NCBI GenBank assembly: GCA_029838215.1
Contig: JALGVI010000020.1
Coordinates: 1-37,810, forward strand
Reading direction: 5' to 3'
From: Candidatus Helarchaeota archaeon
GTDB taxonomy: Archaea > Asgardarchaeota > Lokiarchaeia > Helarchaeales > RDOG01
DNA: 37,810 bases
Part shown: in pieces, positions 23,452 to 37,810 of the stretch
Position numbering within the stretch: the stretch's first letter is position 1
Layout: every line of letters begins with the position of its first letter
Notes under the pieces: generated by a model
What the model saw: the letters and a program-made list of their open reading frames with translations, nothing else
What the model was told of the DNA's origin: nothing
The model's database searches: none
Position numbers and translations under genes: made by a program

Positions 23452-23967
23452 GTGTTAAGAATGAAAAAGAAACAAGTTTCTTTTAAAGTCATTCTAGTTG
23501 GGGATAAAGCAGTAGGAAAGACAAGCATCTTAAAGAAATATGTGAATGATGAATTTCCTGAAAAACATGAATCCACTTGGGGCGTAAATTTAATACGAAA
23601 AGAGTTCCCTGATGGCGATAAAGGCAAAAACGTGACTTTTTGGGATATTACCAGCAATGATCTGTTTCAGGATCAACGTATTTACTATTATGAAGGTGCT
23701 GAAGCCGTGATTCTCGTCTATGATGTTACTAAACCCGAAACATTTTCCAATCTAGAAAGATGGTATGAAGAAATTGCAGCTAATTTAAAGCTAGAGAAAG
23801 AACCCATCTTTATTTTAGGAAATAAAAACGATCTTGACCAAAACATTCCGCAAAAAGCCATTCAAGAATTTACGTTCAGAATAGAAGCAAAACATTTTTT
23901 CATTTCGGCTAAAACCGGTGAGAATGTAGATAAAGTCTTCAAAAAGATAATTAATACATTTGAATAA
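23452..23967 (+). CDS. Rab/Ras-like small GTPase with degenerate G3
   Basis: G1 GDKAVGKTS, G2 STWG, G3 WDITSND, G4 NKND, G5 SAK. No CaaX tail. Start likely ATG 23461. Confidence 0.92.
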   Translation: MLRMKKKQVSFKVILVGDKAVGKTSILKKYVNDEFPEKHESTWGVNLIRKEFPDGDKGKNVTFWDITSNDLFQDQRIYYYEGAEAVILVYDVTKPETFSNLERWYEEIAANLKLEKEPIFILGNKNDLDQNIPQKAIQEFTFRIEAKHFFISAKTGENVDKVFKKIINTFE

Positions 23968-23984: not shown

Positions 23985-25757
23985 TTAAAGAAATTCTATT
24001 TCAGGATCTTCTTCGACGTAATCGCCTTCTCCTTTAATGGTATATGCAAGCGTTTCTTGACCACCAGCGGAAATGTCGCTCAATTCCCAAACCAATGAAG
24101 TGCCATCTTCGACATCGATTATTTCAGGTTTTTTCTCTTCTGGAGTCCAGCTTTTAAGCACGAATCCCTTTGGGATTAAATCCGTGACCTTGCATTTCTC
24201 AACAGGAACTTCGCCCTTATTTTGGAAGACAACATTAATTTCATACATGTCCGGTTCAGAACCAGGTCGAACCTGCTTGAATGCACGATATTTTCTTCTT
24301 ACCTGTCGTGCCGTGATCTTTACGTCGGGTAGCGAATTTTTCACGGGCTGACCAGGAGGAGTGACATTAAAATTCGCTTCTAACGGGCACCCATATTGCG
24401 CAGGTCTCGGTTCCCAAGCCTTTAATGGATAACTAATGACAATCTCATCCCCTGGATTAAGGGGTGTGCCAAATTGAGTAATGTTTGGAATATCAATCGT
24501 CAATCTGTGCTCAAGATCGGGATTGTCATTATCGGGTTCTAATTGTAAAAGCGGTCCTTTTCCTAAAGAATTCCCTGCAAGTTGAATTACAACTTGATCC
24601 AAAGAGGGAGGTTTGAAACTTGATGGAATTACATCGATGACCATTATTTTAGTAAGGGGTGCAGATCCCACATTTTTTATGGTGTCCGTTACTTTTATGT
24701 CCGTCTTTGCATGAGCAGGAACTTCTTGAGGTTCCAAGACTTTTTGAGACTCAATTGCTGCAACGGGAATGTCATCAGATTTCTTATGAATATGTCCCAC
24801 TACACGAGTGTTAAGAACTGAAAGAACTGAAAAGTCATTTGTCTTGGAAAATTTAGGTGGTGAATGACTGGTAACCTTGAAACTTTTTGACCAAACCTCA
24901 TTAGATGCTAATTCAATATATGGGTTTTCCTCAAGTGTTACCTCTTTTACTCCTTCTTTTACATGAATGACTTTCACGGTATTTAATTTCACGTCAAAAT
25001 CGCTCGTGTTTTGAAATTCAACAGTACAATCCCATTCATCTTCAGCAGCTTCATCTTTCTCAAGTGCAAAAATGCTCTCCGAAACACCAATAATGGTTGG
25101 ATTCAATTTGGATCTTTGAACTTTTTGAATTTCATAATTAACATCAATTTCGCCTGTAGGATATGGCGTTGTCTCCGTTGGGTTGGCACCTGCACGAAAA
25201 ACAAGGCTCTGCTCCTCTCCGGGTGGAATCGTTATGTCTTCCCACGAAATTAGGCGGCTTGATTCGTCAAAACTTGCATTGCCTGAAGTTGTCGATTCTA
25301 TTATGGGATTATCAAAGAAATCCAGTAGTTTTTTCTTAAGAGTAACTTTCGTGGTTGGTTGATTAGATGCATTTTTTAATGTCAATATGAACTTCGTTGG
25401 CATGCGACTGTCTAATACGAAATTCCAATTAATGTCATCACCTTTCTCAAAATAAGTGTCGACAGTTTCGGTCAATTCAATTAAAGGTCGATACGTGACA
25501 TCTTTCTCTTGGACAACATAAGTCACTTCGTTTTTTGCCTCTGGCTCTAAAGAACCGATTTTATTTTCCATCAAAGTCAGACTTGTTGATTGACTTCCTT
25601 CAAAAAAATGAACCAAGTTCCAAATTCGTTGCGATGATGATGGATTCACGGTAAGCAATTCGCCTTTTATTTCAATCGAATCTATCTTTCCTTTTCCTGA
25701 AAGTACTGTTTCCTCGGTTTCAGTTATGTTGAGAGTTATTCTCTTCGATTCGGGCAA
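23985..25757 (-). CDS. Soluble multi-beta-sandwich protein (DUF11-like repeats; N-terminus resembles a mu-homology domain)
   Basis: GGAGGT RBS before TTG. Repeated xxTxTxKNxG...VxDxIP motifs. No signal peptide or TM segment. Confidence 0.75.
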   Translation of the reverse strand: MPESKRITLNITETEETVLSGKGKIDSIEIKGELLTVNPSSSQRIWNLVHFFEGSQSTSLTLMENKIGSLEPEAKNEVTYVVQEKDVTYRPLIELTETVDTYFEKGDDINWNFVLDSRMPTKFILTLKNASNQPTTKVTLKKKLLDFFDNPIIESTTSGNASFDESSRLISWEDITIPPGEEQSLVFRAGANPTETTPYPTGEIDVNYEIQKVQRSKLNPTIIGVSESIFALEKDEAAEDEWDCTVEFQNTSDFDVKLNTVKVIHVKEGVKEVTLEENPYIELASNEVWSKSFKVTSHSPPKFSKTNDFSVLSVLNTRVVGHIHKKSDDIPVAAIESQKVLEPQEVPAHAKTDIKVTDTIKNVGSAPLTKIMVIDVIPSSFKPPSLDQVVIQLAGNSLGKGPLLQLEPDNDNPDLEHRLTIDIPNITQFGTPLNPGDEIVISYPLKAWEPRPAQYGCPLEANFNVTPPGQPVKNSLPDVKITARQVRRKYRAFKQVRPGSEPDMYEINVVFQNKGEVPVEKCKVTDLIPKGFVLKSWTPEEKKPEIIDVEDGTSLVWELSDISAGGQETLAYTIKGEGDYVEEDPEIEFL

Positions 25758-28757: not shown

Positions 28758-29894
28758 TTAGAAGCAGCGATGGATGACGCCTGGTCCAATTTCATTATAT
28801 TCCTTGCGAGTTACCCACATTTTCTGGAATGTCTTGAGACTTGCCAGAATGCTTCCTCCGATCCAAACGGAATACATCCGCTCAGGTGGAGCGATGATTT
28901 TTACCTCAACGTTTTGTGGGATGAGCTCAGAAATTTCTCTCGTGAGGCGCTCTTTCAAGCCTGGGAACATGGTTGAACCACCAGAAAGAACAACGTTTGA
29001 ATAGAGATCACGTCGCAAATCGATGTCGCACTTTGAAACTGCTTCGAAGATAACTTCATCGATGGGTGGTGATTCTTTACCAACTGCAGATGGATTGAAT
29101 ACAACCTCAGGAGCGAGAAAACGCTCAACACCGACAGTGATTGTTGCCCCATCGGGTAACATGTAGGATTTTTCCATGCCCGAAACTTTTTCAGCAAGTT
29201 TGAGTTCCTTTTCAGGATCAAGCGCAACATAACAGAGCCTTTCTTTGATATCTCTAACGATTTCTTTTTCTGCAGATGTCGTGAGAGAATAACCTCTTTG
29301 TCGAAGTAGTCGCATTAGATATTCCGTGATATCACGACCCGCTAAATCCAAACGGGAAATAGCATGTGTTAATGCAAACCCTTCATAGATAGGTACAACG
29401 TGCGTAACTCCAGTTCCTGAATCGCATACGAGTCCTGTCGTTCGCCCAGAAGCATAAAGAGAAAGAACTGCCTGCATTGCTACGTAAAGAGCCGGAACGT
29501 GGAATTCATCAAACATGATTTCACACATTTTTTCCCGGTTTGGTCGGGGATTTAGAGGGGGTTCAGTAAGAAGGCAAGGATGTACCGTCGGATCTAATCG
29601 GAGGTCCGTATAGAATGTATAATGCCAAATTTTTTCCATGGCACCCCAATCTTCTACGATACCATGCCCAACAGGGTAAGAAAGGCGGAGAACACCACGC
29701 AATTGTAATGCTTCTTCACCGATATAGTACTCCCGTTGGTAATGCTCTACGTCAGTCATGATGGACGTATATTTTGGATATCCAATTAAGGTTGGGAATA
29801 CACTTCTCGGTTGGTCCTCACCAGCGTATCCGTTCTTAGAAATACCAGTTCCGTTGTCCACAACGACTGGTTTGCTCAGAACTTCTTCTTCCAT
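28758..29894 (-). CDS. Asgard actin (Lokiactin-type)
   Basis: [73 protein letters not shown]-terminal HRCF. GGTGA RBS. Confidence 0.98.
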
Positions 29895-30254: not shown

Positions 30255-33032
30255 TTACATGAAGAATTCAAGACTTTTCGAGCCTGTTAGTTCATTAAAG
30301 TCTATATTTAAGGAATCTAAAACCTGTTCGAATACCGATTCTACCGTATCCTTGTATTTATTATAATCTATATCACCGACATTGGCTAGCTCAAGGGGTC
30401 TAACACCTTCTGTATCCGAGGTCTTCAAAAATTCGATGAATTCACCCGTCTCAACTTTTTTACCGTGTTTTTCTAACATCCGAGCGGCCTTTACGTGTTG
30501 GGGCGTTGTTTTAACATAGCCGTCCAATGGTCTGGTAAGGGCAACTTTAAACGCAAGTTCTTTCTTTGGAATCTGTTTATTCTTCAATTTTTTTAGCACG
30601 ACTCTTAAGAGCTTTCTAATTTTATCTTTGGCAACATCGAAGTCATCCTCGGTATGCACTTCACTTAAAATGTCGATCATCTTGTAAAATGCTTTTTGAA
30701 TGTAAGGAGGTGTATTTGATTTCTTCCCGGATAGTCCTTTAATATCAACGGTTCCATCCTGATATACACCAAAATAATTTTTCTTTCTACTTGAAAGTGC
30801 AACATAACGAAATATCTTTTCCACCTCAAGATCCATCTTGAGTTCTTCAGAACTCCACCTAACGATTTCATCCATCGCCTCTTTCGTAGGATTGAGTAAA
30901 AACACGCTATCTGTATCACCATAAAGCACGGTTATTCCCATGCTTTCGGCTTTTTTCTTTGTTTGTTCAATTGCATATCGCCCACCTGCCGTAGTAGAAT
31001 CCGCAACAGGGGGACAATACAACGGAAATTGGGCAAATCCAAAAACACCGTAACTTGCATTTACAATGACTTTAAGCGTGAATTGAATTATATTAAAAAA
31101 TCTGCGTTCTAATTCCGATATCGTTTTGTCTTTTGATTTTGGTTTAAACCATCTCACCCGTAACTCTTTTAAAAGACCGATAACTAAAGACATCACTCCA
31201 ACTCTTCGAGTGCAAATCCAATAATTCGTGCCAGGCATCAAATTTTTTCTGCATTCATCATGAAGACAATTAACCGTCTCATAACTCAAGTTATAGCGCT
31301 TGATAATGCTCGGATATAAAGATGCGAAATCCAATACGGCAACGTTAAAGTAAATGCCGGGCTTTGGTTCAATGACAATTGCACCCTGATACTTCTTCCC
31401 TTTTATGATCGCAGTTGATTTTGCTTCACCTTTTATCCCTAGAATGTAATCGGGATTAGGAATAAGATAGTTTCGTTGTCTATGTTCCCAATAAAAAAGA
31501 TTCTGCAACCAAGAACTTATTCCTTGACGCGTCAAATCTTCAATCGAAAGTTTTGAAATGCGCATTAGAAGGATGATGAGATTCATGACTAGATCATCAT
31601 CAAAGGTGGTAAGCTCGAGTGTTAATTCACTATCTCTTAAACAATAATAAGAAAGCTCATTATAAGTCATCTCAAAGATTTCCTTGTCGGGATGAGCAAT
31701 TTTTGAATGTTTTAATAATTGCTGAGAAATTTCATCAAGTGAGTTCCTTCTGTATGCATTTCTAAAGGCTGAGATCTTTATGGCGCGGTTTTGGAAAAAC
31801 CTGTAAAGATCTACGTGCACTCCGTTTTTCAATAAGGTGATTTCTCGACCCAGAGTTATGGGAATGTCCTTTTTGTCAATTCCAAGATTGACTGCCCTGT
31901 TATACAGATAAAGAAAATCAAAATTGTCTCCGTTAAAAGTAAGGACAACTGGAAACTTATCAATCGTGCGAAAAGTCGAAAGCAAAAGAGATCTTTCGTC
32001 GTCAAAGTATTCTATGTGCGTGTCTAATTCAAAAATGGGGTCTCCTTCTTCAACGCCTTCACGTCTTAAAGTCAGAACCCTTTTAAAATTATCAGTACCT
32101 GCAAAAGAAACACAAATTACAGATTCTTTCGCTTGTGCCGCAGAAGGCATCTTATTTGGTTCACTAGACACTTCAATGTCGATTGCCACGCGAGAAATTG
32201 GAGGTATGGGACAAAAAAATACATCAATTAAAGATGGTAAAAAAGCCTGAAATTCGGGTGGCTCATCTTTAAACCTGTCCAATAACTCCTTACGAAAATC
32301 GGCGGAGATTTTTATCTCTTCACGTTGTATTCGATCATTCTCGTCTATGTAATAAGGAAGACCAGGAATTAAGGCATTATCATAAATATAACAATTATGA
32401 TATCGAATCCTTGCTTCCCATGCCTTTGTTCCAATGATATCCCGCAAACTATTCCGCTTGCCACCAATCGAAAGAGGATCCTTGGCAATTACTTTAATGA
32501 TGGGTATCACCTTGTCAATAATGAGATCTGTCAACTTCTTTTCTTCTAAATGATCAAAACCACGATTCTCAAAAATTGCAGGATAATCTTTCTTTAACTT
32601 CTCTTTCGAAATGCGAGTGTACAAAAAAGGCTTATGACCGGTATTATCATACCAATATTTCATCTTACCGTCTTCATATATTCCCACGTATGCTTTATTT
32701 CTCTCCCCACTATAATCAACCTTTAAAAGAACGCGCACGTGTTCTTTTTTCACGTTTATTTCTTTCCCTTTTTGTTTTACTCCGCGGTTAATATTTTGCT
32801 TATCCTCCAAGGGATCAACATTGTCTTCCCTTTTAGGAGGAATCTGTTGCGGCGTATTCAAAATAAAGTCGTTTTCAGTTTTATCGGGAGACTTTTTAAT
32901 CTCTTTTCGTTCTTTTAATTTAGACGGCTTTGAAACCTTTTTCTCTGATTTCTTTTCCTTCTTATTTTTCTTATTCCCTGATTTCGTTTTCTTTTTTTTA
33001 GTAGTCCCGTCAAAATAATCCAATAAACTCAT
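30255..33032 (-). CDS. polB1: Family B DNA polymerase, PolB1 type
   Basis: Exonuclease motifs DIE / FNGDNFD / YCLRD and polymerase motifs DFASLYPS, KxxxNASYG, YGDTDS, all intact. Long Lys-rich N-terminal extension. Confidence 0.95.
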   Translation of the reverse strand: MSLLDYFDGTTKKKKTKSGNKKNKKEKKSEKKVSKPSKLKERKEIKKSPDKTENDFILNTPQQIPPKREDNVDPLEDKQNINRGVKQKGKEINVKKEHVRVLLKVDYSGERNKAYVGIYEDGKMKYWYDNTGHKPFLYTRISKEKLKKDYPAIFENRGFDHLEEKKLTDLIIDKVIPIIKVIAKDPLSIGGKRNSLRDIIGTKAWEARIRYHNCYIYDNALIPGLPYYIDENDRIQREEIKISADFRKELLDRFKDEPPEFQAFLPSLIDVFFCPIPPISRVAIDIEVSSEPNKMPSAAQAKESVICVSFAGTDNFKRVLTLRREGVEEGDPIFELDTHIEYFDDERSLLLSTFRTIDKFPVVLTFNGDNFDFLYLYNRAVNLGIDKKDIPITLGREITLLKNGVHVDLYRFFQNRAIKISAFRNAYRRNSLDEISQQLLKHSKIAHPDKEIFEMTYNELSYYCLRDSELTLELTTFDDDLVMNLIILLMRISKLSIEDLTRQGISSWLQNLFYWEHRQRNYLIPNPDYILGIKGEAKSTAIIKGKKYQGAIVIEPKPGIYFNVAVLDFASLYPSIIKRYNLSYETVNCLHDECRKNLMPGTNYWICTRRVGVMSLVIGLLKELRVRWFKPKSKDKTISELERRFFNIIQFTLKVIVNASYGVFGFAQFPLYCPPVADSTTAGGRYAIEQTKKKAESMGITVLYGDTDSVFLLNPTKEAMDEIVRWSSEELKMDLEVEKIFRYVALSSRKKNYFGVYQDGTVDIKGLSGKKSNTPPYIQKAFYKMIDILSEVHTEDDFDVAKDKIRKLLRVVLKKLKNKQIPKKELAFKVALTRPLDGYVKTTPQHVKAARMLEKHGKKVETGEFIEFLKTSDTEGVRPLELANVGDIDYNKYKDTVESVFEQVLDSLNIDFNELTGSKSLEFFM

Positions 33033-33329
33033 TAAAAAAACTCATCCTCAAGTAATAACAGCATGAAGAATCTCCAGCACGAGTTTTATCTTCATTTGTT
33101 ATTATTTGTCTCGCATCGTTAATAAATTGAAAGAATTTGCTTTGAGATTTCTCTATAAAAATAAGATTAAAAGATTTTTTTAAAACGATAAATTTAAGTA
33201 ATCTCCAATGAATAGAAACGAATTGTCTTAAATTCACGATTCAGAAACATTGAAGAAAAGACCTTCAGATAATGAGAGAAAAATGCAGTAATTTAAGAAA
33301 AAACAATTCTTCTAAAGGTTCTGCTTGCC

Positions 33330-33719
33330 ATGAGCGAAGAAATCGAAAATATAAAAAATATTCTCGCAGAAATCCCAAAAACACTTAACCAACTCTCACA
33401 ATCCATTGATAATTCCTTTCAAAAAGTCGAAAAATATTTTTCGCTTGTAGATGATAAATTAAAATATTTAACAACAGACTTTAAGGTGCTAGAAGAATAC
33501 ATACAAAAAGAAGACAAGAAAAATTACATGCAAATCGAAGAGTTAGTAAAAAGATTAGATAACGAAATGAGAAGAATTCGACATTACTTCGATTTGGATC
33601 GACTTAACAAGACAATCCAATCAATAGTTGACCTTCAAAATCGAATGTCTTTTGATATCGATGAAAAAAAGATTCAAGAAACGTTTAAATCTATCATGGA
33701 ATTCGTGAAAAAATTATAA
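33330..33719 (+). CDS. Coiled-coil protein 1 (129 aa)
   Basis: Continuous heptad-type amphipathic helix. First gene of the co-oriented cluster. Confidence 0.85.
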   Translation: MSEEIENIKNILAEIPKTLNQLSQSIDNSFQKVEKYFSLVDDKLKYLTTDFKVLEEYIQKEDKKNYMQIEELVKRLDNEMRRIRHYFDLDRLNKTIQSIVDLQNRMSFDIDEKKIQETFKSIMEFVKKL

Positions 33720-33736
33720 AATGAGGGAAATCATGA

Positions 33737-34150
33737 ATGCGGGAAAGTATTGTCAGTTTTTTGATCAGCACAACCGAAGAAATTCAAAAGCAGGTCGAAG
33801 GTCTAGAGGAATCCATGAGAAGATTAAATGAATCCATAGACAATCTCACCGAAAAACTCACGAATACGGTAGTGGACATTTCAGAAAACTTCCAAGCACT
33901 GATATATTTAATACAATCCAGCAGAGAGGCCCAATTCAACGTGATTTTCTCAATGTTCACCAAGCACATGGAAGCACTTGAAGAAATAAGAGATGTCGCC
34001 CTAAATTTTACGGATAAACAAAAACAAGTTACGGAGGAAACTCATAAATCGTTAAATGCACTACGAAAAAAAATGTTGGATTACGAATTTCAAACGTTTA
34101 TCTTTAATTTGAAGGATTTAATAACTGAATTGAAACGAACGGGGGAATAG
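33737..34150 (+). CDS. Coiled-coil protein 2 (137 aa)
   Basis: Heptad pattern (VEGLEESMRRLNESIDNLTEKL). 17-nt gap from the previous gene. Confidence 0.85.
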   Translation: MRESIVSFLISTTEEIQKQVEGLEESMRRLNESIDNLTEKLTNTVVDISENFQALIYLIQSSREAQFNVIFSMFTKHMEALEEIRDVALNFTDKQKQVTEETHKSLNALRKKMLDYEFQTFIFNLKDLITELKRTGE

Positions 34151-34154
34151 AAAA

Positions 34155-34577
34155 GTGGATGATAATTTAAAACCCTTTATGAAAGAAGTGGTTGAATTTT
34201 TTACTGCCATGCGGGCTTCCGAAAAAGAACGATTCGAATCCATGAAGAAATTCATGAGCGAAAGCATCAATGCTCTTCGAGACGTGACTCAGGTAATTAA
34301 ACAAAATGCTGAATACCTACGTGAAAGCCTGGAAAAATTAAAGGAAATTACGATGGACAATCTAAGTGCCATCAGGACCCAATCTGGCGCGGACTCCATT
34401 CTCAAAGCACGAAAAGCTCTTGATGAAAGCCTGGAGATCTTTCAACGCACGATTCAAGTGATGGAATATCAAAAAACACTCCAAGAAATAAGTAGGTTCA
34501 TTGAAGTCAAAAAACTGAAAAAACTTGACTCAAAGCTCTCACGATTCAAACGACCGATTGAGAAAAAAGAAGAATGA
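34155..34577 (+). CDS. Coiled-coil protein 3 (140 aa)
   Basis: Heptad pattern, basic C-terminus. 4-nt gap from the previous gene. Confidence 0.85.
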   Translation: MDDNLKPFMKEVVEFFTAMRASEKERFESMKKFMSESINALRDVTQVIKQNAEYLRESLEKLKEITMDNLSAIRTQSGADSILKARKALDESLEIFQRTIQVMEYQKTLQEISRFIEVKKLKKLDSKLSRFKRPIEKKEE

Positions 34578-34613
34578 CTTTTAACATGATTTTCTTCACG
34601 TGGGGACGACTGG

Positions 34614-35123
34614 ATGGTTAATTCATTACACTCCGCAGCCATTAGCCTATTAAAAAGGTTTAGTGTAAAATTTAATTTAAGTCAAATCATTTTATTTAAC
34701 GAGAATAAAGAAATTCTATTCATTGACAAACCGATACCCATCGATGAAGAACAACTTCAAGCGTTAATTCAGGAAATTTATCCAACTATTGAAAAACATT
34801 TTTTAACTGAAGAAGAATTCCGTGGAATATTAATATCTTCAAGTCGAATTAATAAATATCTCGTAAGGTCTTCCATTCAAGATAAAAATATCTTACTTTT
34901 GGTGGAGCTTGAAGATCTAACACCACTTACAAGATCAGGATTTCATGATGAATTGCTTTTTATCTTACAACGCATCATTGAAATGATAGAAGCAAAACCA
35001 ACACCTCAGCTACAAATAACATCTAATCTGGAGAAAACAATTCAAAGATTGGAGGGAATCACTAGTAATATGCAACCACCAAAATTTCCTCAAATAAAGA
35101 GGCTGATGGAATACCTGAGATAA
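34614..35123 (+). CDS. Roadblock/longin-like domain protein
   Basis: Inferred helix-strand-strand-helix-three strands-helix order (QIILFNENKEILF ... ILISS ... YLVR ... ILLLVE ... DELLFILQRI). Confidence 0.65.
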   Translation: MVNSLHSAAISLLKRFSVKFNLSQIILFNENKEILFIDKPIPIDEEQLQALIQEIYPTIEKHFLTEEEFRGILISSSRINKYLVRSSIQDKNILLLVELEDLTPLTRSGFHDELLFILQRIIEMIEAKPTPQLQITSNLEKTIQRLEGITSNMQPPKFPQIKRLMEYLR

Positions 35124-35274
35124 TTTCGATTAAGCCAAAATTTATTATTTATCGTAATTTTCTCCCTCTTAGATGAAACAAAATAACAAAATTAATAACT
35201 TAGCATTTAGATTATAAATACTTGAGTAATTAATTTGGAAATCCGTTCTTAATGAAATTAAAGGGTGAAATGTC

Positions 35275-37275
35275 GTGTTACGTGATATTTTTGTGGTTCG
35301 GGAAAAGAAAGTCCTATTTCATAGAAAATTTGGAGACTCTGTTCCGTGGGAAACTTTGAAACCAATTCTTTTCTCGCTCTCAAATTATGTGGCTCATAGT
35401 TCAAAAGAAAAAGTTCAAAAAACCGAAATAGTCAATGCAAAATTATCATACATATATCATGAACCACTTGAAATCTTCTTTGCTTTTCTGACGGACATAA
35501 CTGATAGTAATAATTTAATTGAAAAACAACTCAAAAGAGCAAAAGAAGAATTTTTAGAGCAATTTCCTGATTCGTTGATCACGTCGAATGCCGATCCCGA
35601 AGCATTTGACACGTTTAATATAATTGCAGATTTAATTCACAAAGAACTCCGCCCAAAAATTGCTTTAGTCGGATTTTCTGGCGTGGGAAAAACAACAATC
35701 ACGCGACTGATTAAAGCTGAAGAAATTCCAATGGAACATATCCCAACAATGACTGGTGATGTGGCTACCGTAAAAATCGGTAAACTTCATTTCTTCTTAT
35801 GGGATTTTGCAGGACAAGAACAATTTTCATTTCTTTGGCCAAAATTCATTAAAGGATCAGATGCCGTCCTCTTGATAATGGATTCGACTCTTCGAAATAT
35901 TGACAAATCACGATTTTTTCTCGATCTTGTTTCAAAAGAGGTTCCTTTGGCGAGAGTCGTAGGAATTGCAAACAAACAAGACATTCCAAATGCCCTCACT
36001 CCGAAAGAGATCTCAGACATGTTAAAAATACCCGTTAAAGGAATGGTTGCAGTCGATCCAAATAATCGAGAAAAAATGATTAACATCATTTCAGAAACAT
36101 TAGGAATTACAAATGTCGTATCTCCGCTACTTAGGTCTTTCTTCGATAGGGATAAAGAAGTTGTAGAAGCTCAAGAAGCCCTTGAAAAAGGCGATTTACA
36201 AACTGCACAAGAAAAATTTGAAGCCATCGCAAATCATTCACTTGAATTGGGAGAAGAAAAACTCGCTTCAGAATTTTTTCAAAGAGCAAAGTTGATCAAA
36301 AATGCAATTATCGAGTCTAAATCTGTAACTCCTGCAAAAGAAATCGCTCAGACACAAGAAAAACCACCAGAGCCAAAACCAATCAAGGAAGAATCACAAC
36401 ACGAACCAGAATTAGAACTCGTTGTAGAAAGTTCGGAGACATCAATAAAAATAGAAGATATAAACAAACCTAAAATGGAGCAAGAACAAGAAGTAGAGCT
36501 CGTTGTTGAAAGTCCTGAACCAGTGAAAAGTCCTGAAAAAATAAGTACGTCCCAACCAGAAATGACCGTTTTGCAAAATACAACTGCAAAAGAACCAAAG
36601 ATTCCTCAGGTCGAAAACAATAAAGTGCCTGCACAAGGTGCAATTCGCTCGGAGATTGATGGCATGATCTCCAATATTGAAGCATTAAGAATATCATTGG
36701 GCAGCAATCAAGATACGGCAGCGAAACCTGCTCCTGCTGAAACAACAAAAAGTACCGCTCCATCAGAAGAGGAATTTTCTAAAGATTCTGCAAAAATGAT
36801 GGAAGACATTACAAGATTGAGAGAATCACTCCGCTCAAAGGAAGAAGAATTGGAAGCAATGTCTGCACGAGCAGAAAAAAAAGAGGAACCCACTCCAGTT
36901 CCACTTACAGAAGCTCCTACCACAAAAGAAGAAAAAATATCACCTGAAATTGGTACCGAAACTAAAGAATTAAAAGGACAACCAACTCCAGCACCAGAAC
37001 CACCTAAACCAGCTGAACCCGAAAGTGAAAAAATCGCTTCTAAAACAACTTCAGAAAAGACACCTCAGGTCGATGATTTGCAAAATCGATTGGATAAATT
37101 AAAATCTAAAAAGAAAGCAATTGAACTCGAAATCTTAGATCTTGAAAGCGATTTGAAAAATAAAGCAATCTCTCAAGACTCGTTTGATGAACAAGTCCAA
37201 TTATACAAGAAACTTAGGGATAAGCTGAATAAACAAATTCTTGAACTACGAACTAAAATGATGGAAGATTTTTAA
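35275..37275 (+). CDS. Longin + Arf-like small GTPase + MIT-like + disordered linker + C-terminal helical (steadiness-box-like) fusion protein
   Basis: DIFVVREKKVLFHRKFG longin-like start. G1 GFSGVGKTT, G2 PT, G3 WDFAGQ, G4 NKQD. EFFQRAKLIK MIT-like helix. P/E/K-rich linker. GGTGA RBS. Confidence 0.88.
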   Translation: MLRDIFVVREKKVLFHRKFGDSVPWETLKPILFSLSNYVAHSSKEKVQKTEIVNAKLSYIYHEPLEIFFAFLTDITDSNNLIEKQLKRAKEEFLEQFPDSLITSNADPEAFDTFNIIADLIHKELRPKIALVGFSGVGKTTITRLIKAEEIPMEHIPTMTGDVATVKIGKLHFFLWDFAGQEQFSFLWPKFIKGSDAVLLIMDSTLRNIDKSRFFLDLVSKEVPLARVVGIANKQDIPNALTPKEISDMLKIPVKGMVAVDPNNREKMINIISETLGITNVVSPLLRSFFDRDKEVVEAQEALEKGDLQTAQEKFEAIANHSLELGEEKLASEFFQRAKLIKNAIIESKSVTPAKEIAQTQEKPPEPKPIKEESQHEPELELVVESSETSIKIEDINKPKMEQEQEVELVVESPEPVKSPEKISTSQPEMTVLQNTTAKEPKIPQVENNKVPAQGAIRSEIDGMISNIEALRISLGSNQDTAAKPAPAETTKSTAPSEEEFSKDSAKMMEDITRLRESLRSKEEELEAMSARAEKKEEPTPVPLTEAPTTKEEKISPEIGTETKELKGQPTPAPEPPKPAEPESEKIASKTTSEKTPQVDDLQNRLDKLKSKKKAIELEILDLESDLKNKAISQDSFDEQVQLYKKLRDKLNKQILELRTKMMEDF

Positions 37276-37362
37276 AACATGTTGAATTTAAAATCTTAAT
37301 AAAGCATTAATGATCTATTAAAAATGAGCTCAATTGGAAATTAATAATAACACTTCAGATAC

Positions 37363-37752
37363 GTGATTTGCATGCCAAAAGGAATACTCATAATCAAATG
37401 GGATAATGAAATCGGAGCCATTCTGGTTTCAAAGTACCCTAAAAAATTAAAAATCACGACAAAACTCTTGACAAACATTTACGCTAATCATCGAATCGAA
37501 AGCACAGACCCAAATTTCGCCTCATTAACATTAAAAGATTCGAAAATTACAAGCTTTTTTTCGGGGCTGGGAGAGAATTTTATAGGAGAACCAAATCACA
37601 TTGTTGCTTTGGTCTTGCGTCGGGACGAAAAACCACACTTATTCAGGGAAATTCTAAAAAAAGGTGCCGCAACAATTTTATCAAACTTGAAAAACGATCA
37701 AATTGAAAAGATTCTACCAGAACTGTTCAAAGAGATGTCCAATATCTCCTAA
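37363..37752 (+). CDS. Stand-alone uDENN/longin-like protein
   Basis: GILIIKWDNEIGAILVSKYP resembles the uDENN start (FDxxxGPxlxxxyP). Start likely ATG 37372. Confidence 0.7.
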   Translation: MICMPKGILIIKWDNEIGAILVSKYPKKLKITTKLLTNIYANHRIESTDPNFASLTLKDSKITSFFSGLGENFIGEPNHIVALVLRRDEKPHLFREILKKGAATILSNLKNDQIEKILPELFKEMSNIS

Positions 37753-37810
37753 ATTATATTATTTTCAAAACAAAACTCATTTTTTTGAATTAAAGCATCA
37801 AAATCCCCGA

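Follow-up and report, generated by a model that had tools for sequence, protein, structure and literature searches.

The window analysed here is a stretch of 37,810 nucleotides (nt), the whole of one contig (JALGVI010000020.1, C49 below) of a Candidatus Helarchaeota assembly (GCA_029838215.1, G000 below; 170 contigs, 3.6 Mb). At its right end six co-oriented genes, g1 to g6, appear to encode three helical proteins, a divergent roadblock protein, an Arf-like GTPase fusion and a stand-alone longin. We lean, with moderate confidence, towards the reading that this cluster specifies one small-GTPase switch together with dedicated platform proteins, a model of which the domain identities, the synteny and the conservation of motifs are shown here. 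An earlier, sequence-only reading of the same DNA had taken the six products for a self-contained membrane-trafficking complex, and the fate of that proposal is considered below alongside other alternatives.

For comparison we used 41 genomes of the class Lokiarchaeia, among which G001 is the only other member of the window's own family, and loci were labelled L0xx. Those of the same order include L014, L016, L018, L070/L071 and L072, and f4 and f5 denote other families of the class. The named relatives of the window's proteins are from Helarchaeota and Promethearchaeota, both Asgard archaea. The closest comparison is L072, a contig of an independent sample from a close relative, whose proteins are 38-70% identical to those of the window cluster.

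Domain make-up of the six products

Pfam and NCBIfam recognised just the GTPase among the six products, and the roadblock and longin calls needed family profiles and a fold model. The domain calls of the sequence-only reading were essentially right for g4 and for the fold of g6, as detailed below. In g5, the Pfam Arf match lies well above its cut-off (E 9e-20, amino acids (aa) 116-252, 71.2 bits against 22.3), the nearest solved structures are Arl1 and Arf1 (~1e-20), and the four motifs GFxGVGKTT (x being S, A or P), PTxTG, WDFAGQE and NKQD (G1-G4) are invariant in the orthologues. A match to Gtr1_RagA stayed below threshold (19.8 bits, cut-off 22) and covered aa 128-184 only, and a C-terminal roadblock domain as in Rag/Gtr proteins was not found in g5, where helical and disordered sequence follows the G domain. 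Members of the Arf family carry an N-terminal amphipathic helix that is usually myristoylated on Gly2. Neither feature was found in g5, which starts with MLR and has its G domain from aa 119 onwards, behind an N-terminal domain that is probably a longin (Pfam Longin, E 0.069, below threshold). Orthologues of g5 measure 525-701 aa in full length, and the linker between the hairpin and the C-terminal module varies in length.

The sequence beyond the G domain was compared with Pfam as well, and the hairpin and C-terminus of g5 returned generic coiled-coil noise, with no match to Vps23_core (the steadiness box) or to any MIT family. Of 19 orthologues, 6 have a C-terminal module with a weak match to Pfam CdvA (best E 4e-6), the PDB entry 9s9g was reached at 6.9e-5, and two orthologues show weak Pfam SHOCT matches (best E 0.021); the window copy matched none of these. 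Together with a hairpin that looks TPR- or MIT-like by eye, this weak likeness could suit a role in membrane scission or cell division of the ESCRT (endosomal sorting complex required for transport) or Cdv type, the C-terminal module of g5 plugging into such a machine. We hold that role to be highly improbable, since the window g5 itself lacks the CdvA match, no orthologue matches Vps23_core, coiled-coil profiles cross-match easily, and ESCRT genes were found in none of the loci examined.

Profile comparisons identify g4 as a very divergent roadblock protein. Used alone, g4 had zero Pfam matches and missed the threshold of Robl_LC7 (PF03259), a genome-wide search for PF03259 gave 17 places, none of them on C49, and a word-based homologue search with g4 retrieved only g4 itself. 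A family alignment (A3) was therefore built from the open reading frames (ORFs) upstream of g5 orthologues, and an exhaustive profile search of 1.84 billion proteins gave a family of 54 representatives. Against PDB sequences, A3 reached the solved Asgard roadblocks 7yh1 (2e-6) and 7f8m (1.7e-4) as well as 9jue (1.1e-3) and MglB (0.014). By hhalign, the family matched the genome's own Robl_LC7 proteins at 97.1-97.2%, with the same result when g4 was excluded from the profile, and the g4 of L072 matched the Robl_LC7 set of G000 directly (2.5e-5). The window g4 joins the family solely through aa 91-168 (E 2e-9), and it has a C-terminal helical extension that ends in a PxKFxxIKxL motif. Its AlphaFold 2 (AF2) model is poor, with a predicted local distance difference test score (pLDDT) of 58.5 and aa 74-106 unmodelled; the N-terminal order helix-strand-strand-helix-strand fits the first five elements of the roadblock fold, which runs helix, two strands, helix, three strands and a final helix, and a fold search with this model returned weak, unrelated matches over aa 1-75 alone (best Z 6.1). 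When g5 aa 1-350 (alignment A8) and g4 (A3) were modelled as a complex, the interface score (ipSAE) was 0.00 in two runs made without control runs, a result that weighs neither way on binding. Elsewhere in G000, two near-identical operons, both at contig ends (C63:167-1159 and C114:168-1146), encode a canonical 121-aa roadblock protein and a ~180-aa GTPase in the MglB/MglA manner.

The AF2 model of g6, by comparison with that of g4, is of high confidence (pLDDT 91.8), and its order strand-strand-helix-strand-strand-strand-helix-helix is that of the longin fold. In VIA-align it matched the Lokiarchaeal longin 8yqg (Z 12.2 over 119 residues, 2.5 Å), the GATOR1 chain 8fw5_B (11.7), DENND1A (10.8) and 7o2w_A (9.7), a chain of the C9orf72-SMCR8 complex. 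The Lokiarchaeal longin, NPRL2, VAMP7, DENND1A, Lst4 and FLCN make up its best structural matches (Z 10.4-12.2), many longins rank below the Lokiarchaeal one at Z 9.7-11.7, and the top Foldseek matches are GATOR1 chains. The uDENN call of the sequence-only reading for g6 did not hold beyond the longin fold: that fold fills all 126 aa of the model, just the uDENN-like part of DENND1A/B was matched, and no cDENN or dDENN was found in g6, so that the model describes a bare longin and not a full DENN protein. By sequence, the g6 profile (A2) found nothing meaningful in the PDB, and hhalign detected no relation between g6 and the N-terminal domain of g5, g4 or the roadblock set. Orthologues of ~200 bits are present in most of the 41 class genomes, and matches of E <= 1e-10 in 40 of them. 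One ORF of G000 (on C23) combines a g6-like longin with a weak G-domain match (E 1e-05) in a single protein.

Conservation within the g6 family points to the longins of known GTPase regulators. Across 38 family sequences, W10, G15, H40, R41, an SFFSG stretch and R83 are invariant, D11 is nearly so, and P16 is the consensus. The pairs W10-D11 and G15-(P16) sit on the strand 1-strand 2 hairpin of the g6 model with the spacing of W33-D34 and G38-P39 in C9orf72. A GP motif at the start of strand 2 has been described in FLCN, NPRL2, SMCR8 and C9orf72 and is absent from other longins, and the WD motif of C9orf72 (residues 33-34) stands five residues ahead of G38-P39 (PMC12290439). The structural match of g6 to 7o2w_A begins at model residue 1 and chain residue 24, and an ungapped offset of 23 would put W10 of g6 on W33 of C9orf72.

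The products of g1, g2 and g3 are predicted to be all-helical, as coiled coils or helical bundles, from their composition and periodicity: they are nearly free of Pro and Gly (g1 has one Pro and no Gly), E, K, R, D and Q make up 36-44% of their residues, and their 3.6-residue hydrophobic period is well beyond that of shuffled sequences. They are distant paralogues (hhalign of g1, 87% with g2 and 78% with g3), and each has one-to-one orthologues in the same-order genomes (for g1, in L014, L016, L018, L070 and L072). The same-order orthologues of g3 are 232-267 aa long and have a Pro-rich tail that is absent from the window copy. A search with g2 retrieved 46 protein clusters, all the named ones being from Helarchaeota, Promethearchaeota or Lokiarchaeota. 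Against Pfam and NCBIfam, g1 to g3 gave merely sub-threshold helical noise. The likeness to BORC/BLOC-1 subunits drawn by the sequence-only reading has a counterpart in single sub-threshold Pfam matches of g2 to Snapin_Pallidin (E 0.014) and BORCS6 (E 0.066), but neither is in the 25 most frequent of 171 families matched across 31 members of the g1-g3 families. The commonest weak match there is Baculo_PEP_C (19 of 31), a generic helical signal, and no consistent match of g1 to g3 to a BORC or BLOC-1 family was found.

Gene order among relatives and the nature of the cluster

The conservation of gene order, which the sequence-only reading had put up for checking, holds within the order with small rearrangements and gives way to sub-modules at the level of the class. 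In L072, actin and polB genes are followed by g1 to g6 in an order and orientation identical to the window. L014 and L070/L071 likewise have all six genes, but their g4 stands between g2 and g3 in inverted orientation; L016 has g1 to g5 with g4 inverted and lacks the small g6; and in L018 the order is g3, g1, g2, then g4, g5, with a 375-aa g6-like protein replacing g6. At least five independent assemblies from the order keep the full set in one place. At two other loci a 350-380-aa coiled-coil protein is encoded between g5 and g6 (L022, 5202-6338; L030, 5346-6401), the L022 copy having weak winged-helix-like Pfam matches at its C-terminus.

At the class level, the set splits into an adjacent g4-g5 pair, a g1-g2 pair with a different g6-like longin protein, a lone g3 and a lone g6. 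The g4-g5 pair stays adjacent across the class, a g4 homologue lying directly upstream of the g5 orthologue and co-oriented with it at 16 of 20 loci from five families, and ~370-aa g6-like longins flank g5 paralogues in many genomes. In f4 and f5 genomes g1 and g2 stand in tandem and are followed at 16 of 20 loci by a ~300-aa protein, the N-terminus of which is a g6-like longin while the remainder matches the g5-type helical hairpin; its nearest relative in G000 overlaps a 180-aa GTPase gene by 4 nt. Matches to g3 occur in 38 of the 41 genomes (33 with a single match), located away from g1-g2 and g5 in the f4 genomes checked. These recurring links argue, as far as gene neighbourhoods can, that the helical proteins are functionally tied to g6-type longins and to such GTPases.

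Further arrangements of the helical genes were seen within the window's own family. In G001 (L033, contig C12, 7522-10778), orthologues of g3, g2 and g1 adjoin a gene for a 168-aa Rab-like GTPase (Pfam Ras, 3e-52), and the same site also encodes a 397-aa protein with an IFT52 GIFT domain (4e-14). Two further paralogous trios, in which genes resembling g1, g2 and g3 stand side by side, have no adjoining GTPase gene, namely L048 (G000:C165:18818-23285) and L047 (G001:C5); in G000, a radical-SAM gene sits between them.

The cluster extends beyond g6 in relatives. A co-oriented 485-aa gene follows g6 in L072, and a 373-aa gene in L070/L071, where the next gene encodes an 1830-aa protein with FG-GAP and CarboxypepD_reg signals. 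These seventh genes begin with a g6-like longin (E 5e-21), and in most of the relatives that carry one a giant membrane protein then follows. Because C49 stops 58 nt past g6, six genes is a lower bound for the window genome. The right edge of another of its contigs, C131 (52387-59633, minus strand), encodes the last 57 aa of a seventh gene with 75% identity to that of L072, the same level as for g2 and g6, and after it a protein of 2341 aa, which has a signal-like N-terminus and a single transmembrane segment close to residue 2200. Beyond that segment, the end of its tail shares homology with the C-terminus of the L072 seventh protein, so that the two are fused in that relative. From this arrangement we infer that C49 joins C131. 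The seventh-gene family (A10) gave nothing meaningful against PDB sequences and faint winged-helix hints alone against Pfam.

In the switch model that we favour, the core would be g5, an Arf-like GTPase with its own N-terminal longin-like domain, together with g4, the two being neighbours across the class. Known roadblock and longin domains form two-fold or pseudo-two-fold dimers that dock on the switch regions of GTPases and set their nucleotide state, as in MglB on MglA, Ragulator with the Rag C-terminal domains, and the longin complexes acting as GTPase-activating proteins (GAPs). By analogy, g4 may pair with itself or with a longin domain and so control the G domain of g5. A second regulator of the GAP-longin type would be g6, which probably needs a partner longin because an Arg is missing at the usual finger position; if it acts like the longin GAPs, its counterpart among them would be the partner subunit and not the one that bears the finger. 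The products of g1 to g3 could form a scaffold or effector bundle. In this order, gene families that occur class-wide are gathered into one cluster. As the cluster in relatives continues with a seventh longin gene and then mostly with a gene for a giant surface protein, the switch is probably coupled to a giant single-pass surface protein rather than lipid-anchored. All binding between the products, any activity as GAP or guanine nucleotide exchange factor, and the link to the membrane protein are inferences.

Several observations weigh against this model. G001 has three g5-g6 pairs, all on contigs other than that of its helical trio, and in f4 genomes g6 and g5 are far apart (280 kb in G032). 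G000 holds ~70 ORFs with a GTPase domain, ~20 with a roadblock and ~30 of longin type (~10 like g6 and ~20 like the N-terminal domain of g5), and in a genome so rich in such ORFs some chance adjacency of GTPase, roadblock and longin genes is to be expected. The 151 nt between g4 and g5 leave room for a terminator and a promoter. By sequence, the window g4 does not align with roadblocks over its N-terminal half, and the model of this protein is poor. The window g6 has A16 where the family consensus is P, and the strand 4-strand 5 loop (aa 64-75), in which the catalytic Arg fingers of FLCN, NPRL2 and SMCR8 presumably lie, is Arg-free in all 38 g6-family sequences; the invariant R41 and R83 are located outside it. 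Finally, the ends of C49 and C131 share no sequence, and their join was not observed.

Alternatively, the cluster may juxtapose separate modules: g1-g3, g4-g5, and a third made up of g6, the seventh gene and the gene for the surface protein. Each would serve its own pathway, and rearrangement in one order would have joined them. The dispersal of the parts at class level and the separation of the helical trio from g5-g6 in G001 speak for such an origin, as do the inversion of g4 in L014, L016 and L070, the shuffled helical genes of L018, and the 151-nt and ~90-nt spacers ahead of g5 and g6, which leave room for separate promoters. We still consider it unlikely, since relocated helical genes again adjoin a gene for a g6-like longin protein or a small GTPase, the f4/f5 protein beside g1-g2 reuses a g6-type longin and a g5-type hairpin, and the full set is kept in the at least five assemblies mentioned above.

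A more far-reaching version of the switch model can also be formulated, in which the six products, the seventh longin and the giant surface protein make up one receptor-coupled GTPase machine, g6 forms with the N-terminal domain of g5 or with the seventh protein a heterodimeric longin GAP for the Arf-like domain, and g1 to g3 form a heterotrimeric scaffold. In this full form we think it rather improbable. If true, it would be a prokaryotic forerunner of regulators of the C9orf72-SMCR8-WDR41 (CSW), FLCN and GATOR1 type, complete with client and membrane partner.

The proposal that the six products are a self-contained complex acting in membrane trafficking, either analogous to Ragulator, BORC/BLOC-1 or a DENN-type assembly or a precursor of one, is favoured by matching domain types (roadblock, longin, Arf-like GTPase and small helical subunits), by the two sub-threshold matches of g2 and by the conservation of the six-gene order within the order. 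Set against these are the failure of any BORC/BLOC-1 family to recur over the 31 g1-g3 members and the single roadblock gene, compared with at least four in Ragulator. When all six protein sequences were checked, no transmembrane segment, cysteine or Gly2 was found in any of them, and neither was a LAMTOR1-like Gly/Cys lipidation site or an Arf-type amphipathic N-terminus. With a seventh longin gene, and mostly the giant membrane protein, added in relatives, the cluster is not self-contained, and cultured Asgard cells are reported to have few internal membranes or none (PMC10933270, PMC12290439). A trafficking role, which would be assigned purely by analogy, is in our view quite unlikely, and the cluster is no demonstration of membrane traffic in Asgard archaea.

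Locus layout and neighbouring genes

The ORF coordinates bear out the six co-oriented genes of the sequence-only reading and its gaps of 17, 4 and 36 nt between g1 and g4, all genes lying on the plus strand; the remaining gaps are 151 and 87 nt (Table 1). Shine-Dalgarno-like motifs (GAGGGA, GGGGGA, GGGGAC and GGGTGA) stand ~5-12 nt ahead of the starts of g2, g3, g4 and g5, respectively, and would fit these being internal genes of an operon. A scan for sigma-70 promoters and hairpin terminators, the model of which is inapplicable to archaea, found 13 against 14.8 expected and thus no enrichment. Among public sequencing runs, none was found to contain positions 33000-37810, RNA runs included. 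For g6, the start most likely is the ATG at 37372, because 37 homologues in alignment A2 begin with MPxGI or close variants; the GTG at 37363, with which the ORF was first called, was rejected in its favour.

Table 1. Coordinates of the cluster, the parts of g5 and the adjoining regions in the window
Feature	Position	Strand	Description
polB	30255-33032	-	925 aa; divergent from g1, 297 nt away
polB/g1 intergenic region	33033-33329	.	297 nt, divergent, AT-rich
g1	33330-33719	+	ORF, 129 aa; predicted all-helical (coiled-coil-like)
g2	33737-34150	+	ORF, 137 aa; predicted all-helical
g3	34155-34577	+	ORF, 140 aa, GTG start; predicted all-helical
g4	34614-35123	+	ORF, 169 aa; divergent roadblock-domain protein by profile
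g4-g5 spacer	35124-35274	.	151 nt; T-rich stretches past the g4 stop, TATA-like TTATAAATA, GGGTGA 7 nt ahead of the g5 GTG
g5	35275-37275	+	ORF, 666 aa, GTG start; Arf-like GTPase fusion
g5 aa 1-118	35275-35628	+	N-terminal longin-like domain; kept in 21 orthologues
g5 aa 119-285	35629-36129	+	Arf-like GTPase domain
g5 aa 286-350	36130-36324	+	Helical hairpin, TPR- or MIT-like (by eye); conserved in orthologues
g5 aa 351-600	36325-37074	+	Low-complexity, disordered linker rich in E, K, P, S and T
g5 aa 601-666	37075-37272	+	Conserved C-terminal helical module (~60 aa), alignment A9
g6	37372-37752	+	126 aa with ATG start; stand-alone longin by model; first-called ORF 37363-37752

Upstream of the cluster, the promoter region said to be shared with polB stands as a divergent arrangement across 297 nt, but there is no evidence of shared regulation, as polB lies near the cluster in the same-order relatives without being invariably adjacent to it. 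The polB ORF of G002 (L018, 66-3872, minus strand) is 1268 aa long, against 925 aa in the window, and matches it in two pieces, which suggests an insertion such as an intein. Just past polB lies an actin gene of Asgard type (28758-29894, minus strand; Pfam Actin, E 1e-132), and the actin-polB pair likewise precedes the cluster in L072. Farther upstream, the gene for a 171-aa Ras/Rab-like GTPase (23452-23967, plus strand; Pfam Ras, 5e-37) adjoins that of a 590-aa protein (23985-25757, minus strand), which the earlier reading had called adaptin-mu-like and the sole Pfam match of which is DUF11.

Comparison with known GTPase regulators

Fusions of a longin to the N-terminus of a GTPase and an expansion of roadblock and longin proteins have been described in Asgard archaea (PMC10933270; 10.1101/2020.10.19.343400). 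With the longin- or roadblock-fused Arf/Rag-like GTPases among them, g5 shares its probable N-terminal longin and a GTPase domain that scores as Arf, and G000 shares the large roadblock and longin repertoire; compared with the described fusions, g5 adds the helical hairpin, the long linker and the conserved C-terminal module. According to Tran et al. (2024; PMC10933270), the GTPase genes of MK-D1 do not, as a rule, share operons with roadblock or longin genes, whereas here a roadblock gene is the fixed upstream neighbour of g5 across the class. Asgard genomes encode dozens of small GTPases, roadblock proteins and longins, and the same study points out that a genome alone cannot tell which regulator serves which Asgard GTPase. 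Liu et al. (2020; 10.1101/2020.10.19.343400) predicted an Asgard operon in which a LAMTOR1-like roadblock protein is encoded with a Rab-like GTPase and a DENN-domain protein, and proposed it as an FLCN-like regulator set. The present cluster follows the same logic, combining a roadblock gene with those of a small GTPase and a longin/DENN-type protein, but here the GTPase is Arf-like with a fused longin, and g6 lacks a DENN part. The cluster also includes three helical proteins, and in relatives it gains a seventh longin gene, after which most of them have a giant membrane protein.

Among eukaryotic proteins, the fold of g6 best matches the longins of C9orf72-SMCR8-WDR41, FLCN-FNIP and the NPRL2-NPRL3 pair of GATOR1 (PMC12290439). 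The g6 family shares with these longin GAP complexes the WD and GP signatures, with the spacing of C9orf72, and its likely client would be an Arf/Rag-like GTPase. It differs from them in having neither a C-terminal DENN domain nor an Arg in its strand 4-strand 5 loop, and the window copy has A in place of P. Asgard longins with a GP motif have been suggested to be GAPs for Arf- or Rag-like proteins (PMC12290439).

The g4-g5 arrangement is also that of MglA-MglB in Myxococcus and Thermus, where the roadblock gene lies directly beside the small GTPase gene, and the g4 family profile reaches MglB. Compared with that pair, g5 is Arf-like and carries a fused longin and a 380-aa tail, and g4 stands out by its C-terminal helical extension and by its distance from canonical Robl_LC7 proteins. 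Ragulator (LAMTOR1-5) consists of a lipidated LAMTOR1 scaffold and two roadblock heterodimers. With Ragulator-Rag and BORC/BLOC-1, which serve Rag or Arl8 GTPases, the cluster has in common small roadblock and helical subunits, a likeness of parts lists only.

Taken together, longin-GTPase fusions, a roadblock/GTPase/DENN operon and the idea that GP-bearing longins are GAPs were known before, and the cluster varies this GTPase-roadblock-longin theme. New are the recurrence of the helical trio as a partner, the finding of the WD...G(P) signature in a ~125-aa longin that is nearly universal in the class, and the order-specific gathering of all parts. The cluster and the class-wide g4-g5 pair thereby offer a matched candidate set, comprising an Arf-like GTPase, a roadblock protein, a conserved longin with a GAP signature, three helical partners and probably a membrane protein, with which the question raised for GP-bearing longins (PMC12290439) becomes directly testable using purified proteins.

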